Position numbers and translations under genes: made by a program. The notes below the pieces were generated by a model. It saw nothing but the letters and a program-made list of their open reading frames with translations. It was not told where the DNA came from and ran no database searches. Positions 4,929-60,812 of a DNA stretch of 64,000 nt are shown here, piece after piece; position 1 is the first letter of the stretch; each line of letters opens with the position of its first letter. Source of the DNA: a virus (lineage: Duplodnaviria; Caudoviricetes); the IMG/VR virus record IMGVR_UViG_3300029286_000011. The stretch is one strand, 5' to 3'.

Positions 4929-4956
4929 GAGATGTAATTAGCGCTAATTACATCTC
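4929..4956. promoter_or_regulatory. 28-bp perfect palindrome, copy 1 of the TAATTAGCGCTAAT motif
   Basis: GAGATGTAATTAGC|GCTAATTACATCTC; supplies the TAA stop of the upstream gene and lies about 50 bp upstream of the radical SAM gene. Confidence 0.75.
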
Positions 4957-7072: not shown

Positions 7073-8134
7073 CTATCCGCCTACCCGACTGGGCACTTTC
7101 GTTTCTGTCACGTAAGTTTCAGGGTCGGGCAACGGTGTACGTGCCCACTCGATCGCCCTGTTAAACGCCTTTTCCGCTGCCAGCTTCTGCGCATCGGTGC
7201 ATTCACTCCACACACCGGATTCGAAGAAGTACCACTTGTCGGCTTCCTCTTCTCCGACGACACGTGTGACACGCTCTAGAGCCTGCTCACGTGACCTACC
7301 AATCTGCACAGTACTGGCCTTGGCTCGCACCGTAGAACCATCGCCAAAAACCTGAACAGAGCAACGTCCGATCGATAGCACTGAACGATTACCGGCCCTT
7401 TGCGAAGAATCATTGCCGGCTATCTGAACGGATTCTGACGCTGCATGCTGACATGCGTAATTACCCGCAACCTGTGTTGCGCTATAGCCTGCTCGCTGCA
7501 TTGCATACTCGTTGGCAACTTGCAGACCTCTATCGTGCGCACTTTGCAGGGCGTAATGAGTGGCAATCTGAACAGAAGACTGTGATGTCCTCTGCATTGC
7601 CTGGCTGCCGGCGTGTTGAACGGACAGCCAGCCTGATGACTGAACAGCCTGGTCAGCAGCCTGTTGGTACGAGCAGTCGCTAGACTGTTGCATGGCATAT
7701 TCGCTTGCGCACTGGACAGACGATTGTCTGGCGACCTGCGTAGAATTCCAGCCACAAGACTGCAGGGCTGATTGTGCGGCAACTTGTATCACATAGTCTC
7801 CACCGGACTGCCGCGCGCTTTCAATCCGATTATCCATCGAACAGCAGTGGTACTTGCGCCACTCAGGCAGCTCTGCACGCACACGTTGTTCAGCATCAGC
7901 TGCGTTGTACCAGTCAGGTAGATCGATCTCGGCCTGGTCTGTTCGGAACAACCAGCTATCAATCGGTAGGTCATACTGCCAGTCCTTAGGAGACAGCTCG
8001 ACACTGACGGTATTAGCGCCTCGTACGCCGGCTGAGTGCAGGTCGAACTCTTCGATAATGTCGGAGTGCCTATTGGTCTTCTTCGACCAGAACACACGGT
8101 CTTTAGTCAACACAAAGGATGCAGGGTTACACAC
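7073..8134 (-). CDS. octapeptide-repeat (beta-helix) protein
   Basis: about 19 tandem 8-aa units, nearly all starting with Q (QVAAQSAL, QSCGWNST ... QRAGYSAT, QIAGNDSS). Confidence 0.7.
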   Translation of the reverse strand: MCNPASFVLTKDRVFWSKKTNRHSDIIEEFDLHSAGVRGANTVSVELSPKDWQYDLPIDSWLFRTDQAEIDLPDWYNAADAEQRVRAELPEWRKYHCCSMDNRIESARQSGGDYVIQVAAQSALQSCGWNSTQVARQSSVQCASEYAMQQSSDCSYQQAADQAVQSSGWLSVQHAGSQAMQRTSQSSVQIATHYALQSAHDRGLQVANEYAMQRAGYSATQVAGNYACQHAASESVQIAGNDSSQRAGNRSVLSIGRCSVQVFGDGSTVRAKASTVQIGRSREQALERVTRVVGEEEADKWYFFESGVWSECTDAQKLAAEKAFNRAIEWARTPLPDPETYVTETKVPSRVGG

Positions 8135-8186
8135 AGTATTATCCTTGTACTGTTGATGGCTGTAGCTAGAGAATGTGCGTAGAAGA

Positions 8187-9005: not shown

Positions 9006-9473
9006 CTATCGAATGTCTTCCAGGTCGTACACAAACCACTTGTCGATGCATACGCCACACTTAGCCGCAGAGTCAGCTATGTCCTTCTGCCATGTCGAGC
9101 AGCATGTGACAAACGTCTTACCGTACTTGCGAATCAGGGAATAGTCTGAACCGTACTTAACGCGTTCATCGGCCAGCATGCGCTTCATAGACGCTATCGG
9201 ATCTTCGTCAAGCGCAACAGCCTCAGGCAACTGTGAGTCGGCTGGTGCGTAGCAAGATATAAACACAACCAGATCGCCATCTTCAAGCTCAAAGTCCCTG
9301 GCAACGTCTTGAAACGTCTTATCGACACCACGGCGTACAGTCACATAGAAGTCAGAGAACTTGTCACTCTCTGATCGAAGCATGTCGAACTTGAATCCGA
9401 CCGTCGAGATGATATCGGACTTATAGGCATGACAGCCCTTGACACCGTACCAAGCAATTCCGATCCCGGTCAT
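9006..9473 (-). CDS. hypothetical protein directly downstream of the 35-bp array
   Basis: 155-aa ORF with GAGG Shine-Dalgarno at 9480-9483. Confidence 0.6.
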   Translation of the reverse strand: MTGIGIAWYGVKGCHAYKSDIISTVGFKFDMLRSESDKFSDFYVTVRRGVDKTFQDVARDFELEDGDLVVFISCYAPADSQLPEAVALDEDPIASMKRMLADERVKYGSDYSLIRKYGKTFVTCCSTWQKDIADSAAKCGVCIDKWFVYDLEDIR

Positions 9474-9486
9474 TAGTACCCCTCAA

Positions 9487-10785
9487 TTCTGTTGTCCGAG
9501 TGTGTGGTTACTAGCAGTGGTTGATGTTATCGAGACTGATGGTTACTAGCGCGAAGTGATGTTGTCAGTGCCAATGGTTACTCACGGTGCATGCTGTTGT
9601 CTTGTGGTTTGGTTACTCGTTCTGCCTGATGTTGTCTTGTTTTTTGATTACTTGCATCCCATGCAGTTGTCAATGGCTGTGGTTACTCACACTTATTGCT
9701 GTTGTCGCCATCAATGATTACTTCCGATGACTGCGGTTGTCTCAGGTGCTGATTACGCGTGGGGATTCAATTGAGTGGATGTTGTCAGCGCTAAGGATTA
9801 CTCGACGAGGATGCTGTTGTCTGGGGGCATGGTTACTCGTGGACGATGCTGTTGTCCGGTAGGTTGATTACTCGTTTGACCTGCTGTTATTGGGTCCAAT
9901 GATTACTCGCACGGGTTGATGTTATCTTTCTTCCTTGGTTACTCGCGGTACTTGAGGTTATCGTCGTCGGTGGTTACTCAACGTCGGTGATGTTATCGAC
10001 TTGATTGGCTGTTCTGCGTTAGTGCTGTTATCGGTTGATCTGATTACTCGGACATTGTGATGTTGTCTGGGAGCAGTGGCTACTCTCGGAGGGTGCTGTT
10101 GTCTGGGAGCATGATTACTAAACAGTCGTGCTGTCGTCGCTTGGCTTGATTACTCGCTGTCAATGATGTTGTCTGTGGGGCTGATTACTCGGACATTGTG
10201 CTGTTGTCTGGGAGCATGATTACTAAACAGTCGTGCTGTCGTCGCTTGGCTTGATTACTCTCGGAGCATGATGTTATCGATGCGTTTGGTTACACGAGTG
10301 TAATGCTGTTGTCACGGTCTTTGGTTACTCGGACAGCGTGATGTTGTCTGGAGCAGTGGTTATTTGGCCTGCGTGATGTTGTCTGGACCGATGATTACTC
10401 GCCACCAATGCTGTTGTCGTAAGGTGTGATTACTCGTGGACGGTGATGTTATCCGGTAAAGTGGTTACTTCAGGGGTCTGCTGTTGTCACGGCATTTGGT
10501 TACTCAAACTATGTGATGTTATCGTGGCGTGTGATTACTCAAGTCGCATGCTATTGTCTGAGACTTTGATTACTCCGGGTGCGTGCTGTTGTCTGGGACA
10601 TTGGTTACTCCGGGTGCGTGCTGTTGTCTGGGACCTTGATTACTCTCTGAAGATGCTGTTGTCGTATCAACTGGTTACTACAGCGTGGTGATGTTGTCTC
10701 GGGCCTTGGTTACTCCTGGCGACTGATGTTGTCTTAACGCGTGAGTGCTCAAACCTAATGCAGTTATCATAGTGTGTGAATGCTT
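9487..10785 (-). ncRNA. TIGR-like dual-repeat/dual-spacer array (36 x 35 bp), putative guide-RNA array
   Basis: + strand unit TGRTTACTC-N8-TGMTGTTRTC-N8, repeat starts at 9505, 9540 ... 10707, 10742; not a multiple of 3, no long ORF; fills the gap between two minus-strand genes. The array itself is certain; the guide-RNA function is inferred. Confidence 0.75.
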
Positions 10786-10795
10786 AGGGAAAGTA

Positions 10796-13762
10796 TCAGG
10801 CGCTCGGGGCAACGGTTGTTGCCTGTTGCGATTTAGCTCGAATCTGTGCCAGAGCAGGCTTAAGCTGCTTAAGAATATAGTTCTGCATTGTTTCGCTCTT
10901 ATTAGCCCGCTGCAGTAACGCCAGGGTCTTCTCAGGCGTGTAGCCATACTTGGCCATGGATGTCATCAACTCCTTGTATTCCTCTGGTGTGACCTTCAGA
11001 TCATTCATGAGCCAGGGGAATTGCTGCTGAGCGGCAATGAATTCAGGCGAACCTACAGCCGCCGCAGGTGCAGCGCTGGGCACCGGACTTTCAGCGCCTG
11101 GAACTGGCACAGCTGACGGAGTAGGCGTCTCTTCACCACCCGCGCTAGCAGGCACAGCAGCTGCCTCAGGCGGTACGGCAGGAGCCTCAGGCTGCTTGCC
11201 GCCGAGGTACTGTCCGATTGGGCCGGGTATGTTGTGGCCAAACAAGCCTAATGCACCAAGGCCGAGGCCGGCTGCCATAGGCAATCCGCCACCTTCGCCT
11301 GATGCAGCTTGGTATCCGCCGTACAGCAACGGCAGTATAGCCATCGTCGTCATCCACTTCTGCTGTGGGGACAAATGGCCATATCCAAGCATCTCGAATA
11401 TCGGATCGAAAGGCGTTGTCTGTGCGGGTTGCTCAGGTGTTACCGTGCCCGTCACGTTAGCCTTGGGCAGCTTCTCCAACGGTGCGGCAGGCTCTGGCGA
11501 TGCAGGCTGCGCTGAAGGCGCATTGCTGCCAGGTACACCCATATCTGGCATAGGCACCGGAGGAACTGCACCCTTGGGCATAGGCATCTGAGGCATTGGT
11601 ACTGGCGGTACAGCGCCCTTAGGCCCAGGGTATTGAGGCATAGGCACTGGCGGCACCTTGCCAGGCGTCATGGGATTTGTCTGGGGGTTAGGCTGCGCTG
11701 GAGCTGCAGGCTCAACTCGAAGGGCGTTGTCTGCTGGAGTACCGGCCTGCTCTTCATGATGTTTGATTATCGCCTGTACCAATTCGTTATTGGGATCTGA
11801 CGCCATGTCATCAACAAGCTTGTTAGCGCCTACATCATGCGCCCTGTCGATCAATGCATCGGCTGTGGCTAGACCAGCGCCCATGCTCAATGTCTTGTTG
11901 GCCATAGGTCCGACAACAGGCGTTTGCGGATGCAGGCTCAGAGCCTTCAATCCCTTATCCACTATGCCATTTCTGCTTATGAGCTGCCTGCCCTTACCTG
12001 CGCGAAGAGAAGCACGAAGTCCACCGGCACTTCCACCAACCAATCCGCCGGCAAGAGCCATATCGCTGTCTTCACCTGTTATGGCCTTATTGCCAACGTC
12101 ATAGGCAAAGCCGGCGCCACTACCACGAATTGCACCGCCCAGCGTGTTATCGACTATCGTTCGCGGTACACGCGGCAGGGACTTCGTTATGCCCTTCACA
12201 GCGCCATGAGCTGCACCAAGACCGCCGAGCGTATTGGCAAACGTGCCATCTTCTTTGCCAGTAATCTTGTCTAAGCCGGCACCCAAGGCATAACCACCAG
12301 CGCCCTGTGCAACAGGCTTAACGACAAGGTTCTTCACAAGGCCGGGTGTTTTATCGGCTACAGACTTGGTTGCTTTGACAGTTGCCGACGGTATGGCTTT
12401 AATGGTTCCTTTAACGATATCAGTAAGGCCGCTGAGCTTGATCAATGGCATGAGATCATCGGCAGACTCAGGCGTGACTCGTATGGCCGTTTCAGCGGCC
12501 TTGATGATGTCTGCATTCATGTAGCCCTTGTCAGTCAGCGTGAACAGGAAACTGAGGGCAAAGTCGGACAGTTCAGCCAGCTTCTCTGTGCTGTCATCGT
12601 CCTTGCACACACAAGGCGACAGATTGCACGTTTCACACAGATTGCGATCAACAGGGATCGTCTTATGTTCACTGGCTTTGGCAAGCATGGCAGAGTTCTC
12701 CAAGTCTTTAGGTTTAACGAGCGACTTGTACAGTTGGCGGCCTATTTCACCGGCACCTACCAGTGAGCCACCTATTCCAAGCCGTCGAAGACCGCTAGGT
12801 AATTTACGAATGAACGGCAGCGGATTGAGTCCGGTGAACGTATTGATAGCTGATGGCACCATCTGGATTGCTGTGGGCGCTGCAGCTACAGTCTTAGACA
12901 AACCCTTGCGTGCCACAGGGCTAGTCATGACGTCTGCAAATAGACTCATAAGCTGGCGGCGACTGATCGGCTCGTTGTGGCTGACACTGGCCAGCGTGCT
13001 GATCATAGTTGGTGATATACCCTTAAAGGCCTTGCGACCTATCAAATTCTGTACAGCGCCTATAGCTGCCCTTGGTATGGCTGCTGACTTCTCGGCAGCC
13101 CTCACAGGCAATTGATTAGACGCAAGCAATGTACGCAACACAGCTCTACGCGCCTTTGTAGCCGCAGGATTCATGCCACGATTTATTCGGGTGTTCTGTA
13201 GGGCTGTGATCAGAGAACGAAAGCGTATATTCTGCAAGGCTGATCGTGTGTCTGTACCTCGCTCTTCATCCGATACAGGATCACCGACCTCACCAGTGCC
13301 GAAGTATGTGCGACTGCCACGATACTTAGCTCGACGTGCATCGTTAGCCTGATTAGTCCATTCGAATGTAACCGGATCAATAGGCAGCAAACGAGGATTG
13401 TGCAGCTTGTAGCCTGCCTCTTCTATGAACTCACGAGCACCCGCCTGCTCCAACGTCTCACCGTCTTCAACGCCGCCACCAAATGCACCATGGTTCTTGT
13501 CCTGATCGTAATAACCGCCAAGAACTTTGCCCGCCTGATTAAGGCCGAACATCTCTATTCGATCACGGTACGGACGCGAGTCATCAGCCTTTTTCTTAGC
13601 TTTCGGAGACTTGATCTTCTTGATCACGTTGGTGTCCTTCTTCGACTTGTCGATAGGCTTGCTAGGCTTGTCGATACGCAGCTTGCCAGGCACGCTGTCC
13701 TGCAGCTTACCAATAGGCTGCATGCCCTGCGTCATCAGCGCTATGAGCTGGCTTAGTGTCAT
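10796..13762 (-). CDS. large putative virion protein with N-terminal Nudix hydrolase domain, Gly-rich and Pro-rich regions
   Basis: Nudix box GGGVEDGETLEQAGAREFIEEAG; Gly/Ala-rich hydrophobic repeats; PVPMP repeats. Confidence 0.75.
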   Translation of the reverse strand: MTLSQLIALMTQGMQPIGKLQDSVPGKLRIDKPSKPIDKSKKDTNVIKKIKSPKAKKKADDSRPYRDRIEMFGLNQAGKVLGGYYDQDKNHGAFGGGVEDGETLEQAGAREFIEEAGYKLHNPRLLPIDPVTFEWTNQANDARRAKYRGSRTYFGTGEVGDPVSDEERGTDTRSALQNIRFRSLITALQNTRINRGMNPAATKARRAVLRTLLASNQLPVRAAEKSAAIPRAAIGAVQNLIGRKAFKGISPTMISTLASVSHNEPISRRQLMSLFADVMTSPVARKGLSKTVAAAPTAIQMVPSAINTFTGLNPLPFIRKLPSGLRRLGIGGSLVGAGEIGRQLYKSLVKPKDLENSAMLAKASEHKTIPVDRNLCETCNLSPCVCKDDDSTEKLAELSDFALSFLFTLTDKGYMNADIIKAAETAIRVTPESADDLMPLIKLSGLTDIVKGTIKAIPSATVKATKSVADKTPGLVKNLVVKPVAQGAGGYALGAGLDKITGKEDGTFANTLGGLGAAHGAVKGITKSLPRVPRTIVDNTLGGAIRGSGAGFAYDVGNKAITGEDSDMALAGGLVGGSAGGLRASLRAGKGRQLISRNGIVDKGLKALSLHPQTPVVGPMANKTLSMGAGLATADALIDRAHDVGANKLVDDMASDPNNELVQAIIKHHEEQAGTPADNALRVEPAAPAQPNPQTNPMTPGKVPPVPMPQYPGPKGAVPPVPMPQMPMPKGAVPPVPMPDMGVPGSNAPSAQPASPEPAAPLEKLPKANVTGTVTPEQPAQTTPFDPIFEMLGYGHLSPQQKWMTTMAILPLLYGGYQAASGEGGGLPMAAGLGLGALGLFGHNIPGPIGQYLGGKQPEAPAVPPEAAAVPASAGGEETPTPSAVPVPGAESPVPSAAPAAAVGSPEFIAAQQQFPWLMNDLKVTPEEYKELMTSMAKYGYTPEKTLALLQRANKSETMQNYILKQLKPALAQIRAKSQQATTVAPSA

Positions 13763-20301: not shown

Positions 20302-20323
20302 GAGATGTAATTAGCGCTAATTA
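20302..20323. promoter_or_regulatory. palindromic motif copy 2
   Basis: GAGATGTAATTAGCGCTAATTA, between a terminator and a start codon. Confidence 0.75.
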
Positions 20324-20335
20324 AATTCACCAATG

Positions 20336-32480: not shown

Positions 32481-32506
32481 AGATGTAATTAGCGCTAATT
32501 ACATCT
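32481..32506. promoter_or_regulatory. palindromic motif copy 3 (26-bp perfect)
   Basis: AGATGTAATTAGCGCTAATTACATCT; supplies the RuvC stop codon and lies 20 bp upstream of the next gene. Confidence 0.75.
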
Positions 32507-42092: not shown

Positions 42093-42112
42093 GATGTAAT
42101 TAGCGCTAATTA
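42093..42112. promoter_or_regulatory. palindromic motif copy 4
   Basis: GATGTAATTAGCGCTAATTA, between a terminator and the recA start. Confidence 0.75.
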
Positions 42113-42117
42113 AATTC

Positions 42118-60290: not shown

Positions 60291-60812
60291 TCAATCAGTT
60301 GGGATGTAATTAGCGCTAATCAAATCCATATGCAGAATGTCTTCAAGATTGTTGATGGAGACTGCTGCCGTACTGAGTTCAACATCACTGTTTTTGTAGT
60401 TGGCTCTCCAACATACATGAGGTCGACTGCTGCTTGATCTTCCTGTGTGCACTGTCAGGTACGTTGTATGACAGACCGTTGGATGATCTAGCCCTACCAG
60501 AGTTGTCAGACCGTCAGGTAGAACAACACCTTGACCCTCTGACAACTTGTCGATGTCGATTCTTGGATCATCATCAAGCTGAAGCACTGCACGCGACAGA
60601 CAGAACGAGGCTGACTCGTCAGCACCACACCAGAACTCCATTGCGTATAGCTCCGAGTCTGTCAGTTGCAGCAGCTTCAGTTGGGCTGCTCGTACTTTGA
60701 ATCGTCTGACCGTGTCTCGTGTTACACGAATCAGTGCATAGTTACAGTTGCCTGTCGTATCCGTGACTGGCAGCACTAGCCGTCTTGGGGCACCTGTTAT
60801 CAGCGCCGGCAT
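60291..60812 (-). CDS. hypothetical protein
   Basis: 173-aa ORF; its 3' end contains motif copy 6. Confidence 0.6.
   Translation of the reverse strand: MPALITGAPRRLVLPVTDTTGNCNYALIRVTRDTVRRFKVRAAQLKLLQLTDSELYAMEFWCGADESASFCLSRAVLQLDDDPRIDIDKLSEGQGVVLPDGLTTLVGLDHPTVCHTTYLTVHTGRSSSSRPHVCWRANYKNSDVELSTAAVSINNLEDILHMDLISANYIPTD
60303..60322. promoter_or_regulatory. palindromic motif copy 6 (one mismatch)
   Basis: GATGTAATTAGCGCTAATCA. Confidence 0.65.

Follow-up and report, generated by a model that had tools for sequence, protein, structure and literature searches.

Dual-repeat TIGR arrays, an architecture defined by Faure et al. (2025, PMC12045711), are built from two short repeats that alternate with short spacers of fixed length, and the tigRNAs of this class measure about 36 nt after transcription and processing (Faure et al. 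2025). One such array, that of SpTasH, is carried by Salicola phage CGphi29, and its tigRNA5 reads AGCCA-CACGGCCU-AAGACAACCA-ACCGGAAC-AAGCG (PMC12045711). On the effector side, TasA proteins and catalytically dead TasR act as RNA-guided transcriptional repressors in reporter assays (Xu et al., bioRxiv 10.64898/2026.09.09.750476). According to the same authors the natural targets are unknown (bioRxiv 10.64898/2026.09.09.750476), and the discoverers of TIGR-Tas reported that targets could not yet be determined and that targets of 16-18 nt give many false matches. No natural TIGR-Tas target was reported in the literature that we searched, where TasA repression has been published for engineered targets only. 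Among CRISPR systems, the partial complementarity of Cas9 tracr-L, scaRNA and CreR/CreTA-type RNAs leads to repression and not to cutting.

The array described here lies in a window of 64,000 nucleotides, the whole stretch of lake-phage DNA that was analysed. The known TIGR-Tas family gains new members in this array and in its probable effector, a protein of 443 aa. Like the SpTasH array, the present one is phage-borne, of the dual-repeat type and equipped with 8-nt spacers; the SpTasH loop repeat AAGACAACCA contains GACAAC, as the present loop repeat does, and the SpTasH Nop domain is homologous to the family of the 443-aa protein. Three traits of the array are unusual: its unit comprises 35 nt as opposed to 36 nt in SpTasH, its repeats (box C) end in YCA or KCA where those of SpTasH end in CCA, and it is separated from the tas gene by about 40 kb, whereas the SpTasH array adjoins it. 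SpTasH also has an HNH domain, which is absent from the present candidate effector. In this respect the candidate resembles the TasA of Xu et al., with a nuclease-less Tas and a tandem-spacer guide; theirs represses by steric block. Their assays employed engineered, fully matched targets and stem-loop-type systems, whereas the candidate natural target considered here is a multi-copy, promoter-like motif with two to three mismatches. The arrays of TasA homologues on metagenomic phage contigs (L146; 39 IMG/VR loci) are associated with the same protein family at 25-36% identity and have 8-nt spacers, but adjoin tas, unlike the present array; L146 shares the loop repeat type GAYAACAKCA with it. 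The CRISPR guides mentioned above resemble the present case in their short or imperfect match to a promoter, which in CRISPR serves regulation. The effectors of these CRISPR regulators, however, are nucleases in which partial pairing avoids cutting, a need that a nuclease-less TasA does not have.

Results

A dual-repeat array inside an operon

The array (Table 1) is read from the minus strand, on which every gene of the window is encoded. Loop repeats of the form GAYAACAKCA (10 nt) alternate with edge repeats of the form GAGUAAYCA (9 nt), the spacers are 8 nt long with two exceptions, and 36 guide units are usable. The array thus has the two short repeats and the short spacers of fixed length of the dual-repeat class. 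GA opens and CA closes each of the two repeats, so that box D start and box C end are shared, with covariation of the ending seen in related arrays; the canonical UG...CCA letters are absent.

Neither a sigma-70-like promoter nor a terminator of its own was found on the minus strand of the array, and its one end adjoins the start of a gene for 155 aa (window 10785-10800). The array is wedged inside an operon, beginning 11 nt past the stop of a 988-aa NUDIX-domain gene (window 9470-9500). The last 'spacer', UUGAGGGG, is at the same time the Shine-Dalgarno sequence of the 155-aa gene, and the ATG of this gene sits within the final degenerate edge repeat. Excision of tigRNAs would sever the polycistronic transcript that carries the array.

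One structurally odd unit

A preliminary description of this DNA had singled out an atypical 45-bp unit at 9750-9803, which proved to be real, a complete unit of the 37-unit array in minus-strand reading. Its spacers had been placed correctly, on the plus strand AATTGAGT at 9769-9776 and AGCGCTAA at 9787-9794, with the loop repeat GGATGTTGTC between them (9777-9786). Read from the minus strand, the order is GAGUAAUCC-UUAGCGCU-GACAACAUCC-ACUCAAUU-GAAUCCCCAC-GCGUAAUCA. The 10-nt insertion had been taken to resemble an extra edge repeat that leaves the 8-nt spacer intact, a reading with which our analysis agrees, and the insertion can supply the 3' half-edge of the unit.

The edge and loop repeats in front of spacers A and B are the only internal repeats of the array that end in C instead of A. 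The shortened third repeat of the unit also reads ...AUCC, and all three carry ...UCC as against ...YCA or ...KCA elsewhere. The two spacers are AT-rich, whereas the spacers of the array are C-rich overall. Since the 8-nt spacers and the GA starts of the repeats are kept, a 35-nt RNA of the form AAUCC-UUAGCGCU-GACAACAUCC-ACUCAAUU-GAAU could be excised from the unit. Because of its C-ending repeats, the 10-nt junction and the AT-rich spacers, the unit looks like a coherent variant rather than a product of random decay, and a related array is its possible source. Five other assemblies contain the identical unit but carry little weight, as they represent near-identical strains. A reading in which the odd terminal C serves as base nine of a spacer was rejected, as it worsens the match described below.

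Table 1 Features of the array, the odd unit, the motif copies and the protein formerly named as effector (window positions).
Feature	Positions	Strand	Remarks
Dual-repeat TIGR array	9470..10785	-	37 loop repeats, 35-nt period, 8-nt spacers
5' edge repeat of the odd unit, GAGUAAUCC	9795..9803	-	final base C; A in the other internal edge repeats
Spacer A, UUAGCGCU	9787..9794	-	equals 8 bases of the motif's palindromic core
Loop repeat of the odd unit, GACAACAUCC	9777..9786	-	final base C, not A
Spacer B, ACUCAAUU	9769..9776	-	3' half AAUU extends the match; positions 2-4 mismatched at motif copies
10-nt insertion, GAAUCCCCAC	9759..9768	-	first 9 bases like a shortened edge repeat GA...CCA
Edge repeat GCGUAAUCA	9750..9758	-	opens the following unit
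Motif copy, part of a 28-bp perfect palindrome	4932..4953	-	50 nt upstream of the start of a 298-aa gene; guide 13/16
Motif copy	20305..20326	-	directly after terminator-like hairpin 20359-20340; 14 nt before start codon; guide 14/16
Motif copy	32483..32504	-	about 22-25 nt before start codon; guide 13/16
Motif copy	42094..42115	-	directly after 15-pair terminator-like hairpin 42160-42123, before start codon; guide 14/16
Motif copy	59173..59194	-	28 nt before gene with RNA polymerase alpha C-terminal domain (RNA_pol_A_CTD); guide 14/16
Motif copy	60304..60325	-	within the 3' end of a 173-aa gene; guide 13/16
327-aa protein named earlier as effector	53823..54806	-	no detectable Tas-family link in the tests run

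A palindromic, promoter-like motif

The core TTAGCGCTAA occurs six times in the window, and in gene orientation the motif reads AYKTRA-TTAGCGCTAA-TTACAT-Y. The earlier count of six copies and the positions 20311, 32489, 42100 and 59179 stand, while the copy placed at 4939 actually lies at 4938; the sixth copy is at 60310. The downstream arm TTACAT is the same in all six copies of the window, and the upstream arm varies. Five of the six precede, by 14-50 nt, a start codon that has a ribosome-binding site, and two directly follow terminator-like hairpins. More copies are present in the adjoining 38 kb, where they occur every 9-15 kb just ahead of gene starts; in one copy beyond the window the downstream arm is TTGCGA. 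The arms of the phage's own motif variants comprise TTACAT, TTAAAT, TTACGT and TTGCGA. The motif is thus conserved and oriented and lies just ahead of transcription units, as is characteristic of a promoter motif. Judged from its position, the simplest reading is that it represents the promoter, or the promoter together with an operator, of this phage of about 210 kb.

A copy at L126:6066-6088 (record about 97692-97714) ends in ...TTACATG, the ATG of which is the called start of the gene for an epimerase of 357 aa, whose mRNA would be leaderless or nearly so should the motif act as a promoter.

Target geometry and match to the motif

The target of the odd unit had been derived as spacer A followed by the reverse complement of spacer B, and a comparison with published oligonucleotides confirmed this geometry. 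TaTasR tigRNA1 is AGCCA-UGCAAGCCC-UGAAACCCA-UUGCCUUAG-UGCG, and its optimised target strand carries TGCAAGCCC and then CTAAGGCAA, i.e. A + rc(B) (Faure et al. 2025, Table S3). This order was taken from the oligonucleotides, the text of the papers giving none, and is consistent with how the strands are numbered in the SpTasH structure paper (PMC13421893). The predicted target of the odd guide is TTAGCGCTAATTGAGT, composed of TTAGCGCT|AATTGAGT.

At the motif copies 59179, 42100 and 20311 this guide matches 14 of 16 positions, 12 of them contiguous, and 13 of 16 are matched at the remaining copies of the window and in the opposite orientation of every copy; both orientations match because the core of the motif is palindromic. 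The range of 13-14/16 with 12 contiguous bases given in the preliminary description was reproduced, with runs of 12-13 bases in our hands. Spacer A pairs with 8/8 bases at every copy and in both orientations. Spacer B pairs through its 3' half and a further one or two bases; nearly every copy mismatches it at positions 2-4, and it differs from the arm TTACAT at three of four arm positions; the guide covers the core and the variable upstream arm. At a copy outside the window (record position 83131, the one with the arm TTGCGA), only B positions 1 and 3 are mismatched and the run extends to 13 nt.

The genome was read over the window and record positions 73830-111989 (38 kb beyond the window), together about 105 kb of the roughly 210 kb; from ENA contig ERZ27250635 k141_2774619, record positions 6556-27539 and 55889-111989 were read. 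Within these 105 kb no 15/16 or 16/16 target of the odd guide was found, the best being 14/16. The phage thus has no own-genome site at the level of at least 15/16 taken to indicate self-targeting in the part read. Gaps of 1-2 bp between the half-targets did not improve the match.

According to published rules, the seed lies in the middle of each spacer, which places the mismatched B positions 2-4 next to or in it. For SpTasH with its 8-nt spacers, most single mismatches are reported to reduce cleavage strongly and adjacent double mismatches to abolish it. TaTasR, on the other hand, has been reported to act in cells with one spacer fully matched and the other pairing at 6/9 positions, and spacer A has been described as the one that engages first.

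Statistical weight of the match

Among the 36 guides, only the odd one has a match of at least 14/16 in the window, and this match falls on the motif; the best self-matches of the others reach 12-13, and one guide with a 9-nt spacer reaches 14/17. A 14/16 self-match somewhere in the window is in itself unremarkable, because nucleotide-shuffled spacer arrays contain on average 1.07 guides with a window match of at least 14/16, and at least one such guide in 63% of arrays. A match on the motif is a different matter. The preliminary description had estimated it to be improbable by chance, and we arrive at a post hoc p of about 2-3e-4: the probability per array of at least 14/16 on any 16-mer overlapping the motif is 2.7e-4 under an iid null and 2.3e-4 under shuffles that keep the composition of each spacer, and in the latter shuffles at least 13/16 on the motif is reached with a probability of 3.3e-3. 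When the real spacers were re-paired in the correct geometry (5112 re-pairings), at least 13/16 was obtained only for the true pair and the equivalent swap. Equally frequent motif matches by shuffled pairs, which the preliminary description had named as the outcome that would speak against its claim, were therefore not seen with shuffled or re-paired spacers. Outside the array no other k-mer comes near the motif in over-representation, so that little correction is called for on account of its choice.

Candidate effector proteins

The preliminary description had assigned the array to the 327-aa protein encoded at 53823..54806, an assignment that sequence tests did not sustain. Pfam, PHROGs, a PDB sequence search and tblastn against phages returned no match for this protein, and neither phmmer against SpTasH nor hhalign against the TasA family gave a link. 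Its structure models are of low confidence (AF2 pLDDT 45, Atlas 0.42), the latter with a weak hint of an IS110 DEDD N-terminus. On the unlikely reading of the odd unit as a dedicated regulatory guide (see Discussion), its tigRNA might even serve the protein at 53823-54806, then taken as a second, array-less Tas-like protein.

In this phage and in the distant relatives L001 and L150, the gene for the 327-aa protein always follows SbcD/SbcC-like genes and is itself followed by a helicase gene, a primase/DnaB-like gene and a UDG-PolA gene, a conserved replication/repair synteny.

A better candidate is the 443-aa protein, the probable Tas partner with a Nop domain, which is encoded at L126:11474-12805, outside the window, on the same strand as the array and about 40 kb from it rather than adjacent to it. 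No second array was detected beside this gene or between it and the array. The profile of the 443-aa family aligns with the SpTasH Nop domain at an hhalign probability of 97.9% (E 3.5e-13), and the alignment takes in the GIGP motif, the C-terminal helix H..RA.R..K.FL and the GH of the processing loop. In the AF2 model (pLDDT 86) the protein is entirely helical apart from a disordered N-terminus of about 57 residues, and neither a RuvC nor an HNH domain is present, as is the case for TasA. The sole Pfam match, Transposase_20, is below threshold, and the top PDB matches of the model in Foldseek are the structures TasR 9MTY and TasH 9W0x. The closest homologue (L146, 36% identity) directly adjoins an array with loop repeats GAYAACAKCA and 8-nt spacers, including the exact loop repeat GACAACATCA. 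Homology and the predicted fold thus suggest that the effector of the array is most likely the 443-aa protein, a nuclease-less protein of the TasA type. Lack of a nuclease domain fits binding or repression, as published for TasA.

The 443-aa gene is situated about 29.3 kb before the start of the window, between a 337-aa gene and an adenylosuccinate synthetase gene. At the processing dyad Y289/H296 of SpTasH, the 443-aa protein has H at the Y position.

Related arrays and database searches

IMG/VR yielded no relatives with the same array repeats, and 60 matches to these repeats in JGI contigs were single chance matches without arrays; the phage and its array type are absent from both collections, in which its relatives are poorly covered. 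A motif 15-mer had 55 matches in IMG/VR, all single and at chance level, and no relative with the motif was among them. The 327-aa protein led to the distant relative L150, in 21 kb of which the motif is absent.

The exact 16-mer target is present in 19 IMG/VR stretches from about seven independent families, none of them in motif context, a number at or below chance expectation (55 matches for a 15-mer). Twelve of the 19 represent one conserved coding site in a 550-aa virion/amidase-like protein. None of the other guides of the array matches the contigs with an exact 16-mer. As targets, these sites were rejected: they are single, outside the motif, at chance level and without a second matching guide. 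The contigs with the 16/16 site in the virion/amidase-like gene are L128, L130, L131, L133, L134, L137, L138 and L140-L144.

As a control at the level of the class, 80 IMG/VR loci encoding relatives of the 443-aa protein were collected; arrays could be parsed in 49 (48 and L146), and 39 were tested. The 874 guides compared (527 loop-centred and 347 ambiguous unique ones) were each set against about 14 kb of their own flanking DNA. Across the 39 TasA loci no guide reached at least 15/16 in this DNA, and nine reached 14/16 as against 7-9 in shuffled and wrong-geometry controls, which is no excess. The guides of L146 had no match in their own 8.8-kb contig. Judged on nearby DNA, the guides of the TasA clade are not as a rule directed at self or near-self sequence. 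This negative class test lowers the prior for self-regulation, and for a guide directed at the main motif of the phage itself we set a low prior of about 1% in our weighing; we also took into account that an imperfect match is itself less expected under a real link.

Repeats of related arrays typically have GA at the start and CCA or CCG at the end, the ending always being common to both repeats. Among loci L152-L231, the box C ending is CCG in L184, L188, L197, L207 and L210, and CCA in L152, L173, L209 and L231. On a 113.7-kb IMG contig, L148:8170-9990 contains a dual-repeat array of about 1.8 kb and about 50 units upstream of a TasA homologue, with the edge repeat AGCGAGCCA and the loop repeat GAGAGCACCA, its repeats being too degenerate for automated parsing.

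Discussion

The statistics tilt our judgement slightly towards a link between the odd guide and the promoter-motif family that is not accidental. Within such a link, most of the weight is given to a guide whose full target is a variant arm of the motif, less to weak self-regulation, and some to a relic. The explanation that we favour, to which we would give close to but not quite an even chance, is that the unit is a complete TasA guide unit whose full target is a variant arm of the promoter-motif family and by which the phage's own promoters are matched in part. The odd unit would then yield a complete tigRNA served by the 443-aa TasA-type protein, with a predicted 16-bp target that consists of the palindromic core of the motif and AATT. 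At the phage's own promoters spacer A would pair fully and spacer B in part, which may result in weak or transient occupancy at most, and not in cleavage. A motif variant in which the arm is ACTCAA/TTGAGT would be matched perfectly, for example the version of the promoter in a related phage; a single guide could then shut down the whole promoter class of a competitor and spare the phage's own promoters. What the data show are the sequence, the geometry, the statistics, the Tas family and nuclease-less model of the effector and the promoter-like setting of the motif; that the odd unit is expressed and processed, that its guide leads to DNA binding and repression, and that the variant target exists, we infer.

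Both functions proposed in the preliminary description are affected by these results. Of its proposal that the guide regulates the phage's own promoters, the array, the geometry, the specific match, the promoter-like motif and a nuclease-less effector stand, but the lack of a site of at least 15/16 in about 105 kb and the B mismatches near the seed speak against it. Its second proposal, targeting of a competitor, had pointed to relatives in which the perfect variant TTAGCGCTAATTGAGT is repeated; a search of IMG/VR, in which relatives of the phage are poorly covered, found none. In the wider sense of a dedicated regulatory guide that brings a nuclease-less Tas to a promoter class, be it the phage's own copies, about 15 in number, or the variants of a co-infecting relative, the idea seems unlikely. 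If it were true, a natural target of a TIGR-Tas system would have been identified for the first time, and a phage would be silencing a promoter class by RNA guidance. Real binding would make a first natural case of a phage-encoded, RNA-guided repressor in control of a promoter class, and binding confined to the variant arm would amount to RNA-guided competition between related phages. Unusual statistical weight comes from the candidate target being the most repeated non-coding motif of the genome and not a lone match.

The main competitor of the variant-arm explanation is coincidence, to which we attach a substantial probability, though one clearly below even: the guides would have other targets, and the one 14/16 self-match to be expected would happen to lie on the motif. 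The number and strength of self-matches are indeed at chance level (one observed, 1.07 expected), the match is imperfect at every motif copy, the 39 related loci give no signal of self-targeting, the AATT that extends the run is itself palindromic, and the test was made post hoc. Against coincidence stand the improbability of landing on the motif and the circumstance that the matching guide comes from the one unit among the 37 with an odd structure, which contributes a further factor of about 1 in 36.

Autoregulation, in which the TasA-tigRNA complex would bind the phage's own promoters despite the mismatches and damp this promoter class including the operon of the array, appears improbable. 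It would draw on the complete pairing of spacer A, the one that engages first, at all copies, on the activity of TaTasR at a site where the second spacer pairs incompletely, on the copy at 83131 with its two B mismatches, and on an effector model without a nuclease domain, so that self-binding would be harmless. A guide selected for this purpose, however, should follow the invariant TTACAT and thereby reach 16/16 nearly everywhere, whereas spacer B departs from this arm; a nuclease-less effector offers no reason for keeping mismatches, and the published sensitivity to mismatches is high. Least probable of all is a relic or import without present function, recombined from a related array or with spacers derived from a motif copy, which would account for the ...UCC repeats, the 10-nt junction that follows the unit and its AT-richness, but not readily for the retention of exact 8-nt spacers and GA repeat starts or for the identity of the unit in five other, albeit near-identical, strains.

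Variation among strains

Compared with three other assemblies (two from ENA, one from JGI), the array differs at three positions only, 10106, 10142 and 10145. All three lie in spacers of a duplicated 105-bp block and none in repeats, the variant spacers being AGCCAAGC vs AACCCAGC and TGCTCCCA vs TGCTCGCA. Between the 268-aa and 351/353-aa genes, a 209.6-kb ENA contig is about 2.2-2.5 kb longer than the genome of the window (window about 7850-8160 vs L064:7630-9794), and the extra segment contains genes of 288, 43, 329 and 112 aa. Identity falls to 96.5% just past this segment, which represents a strain-level indel.
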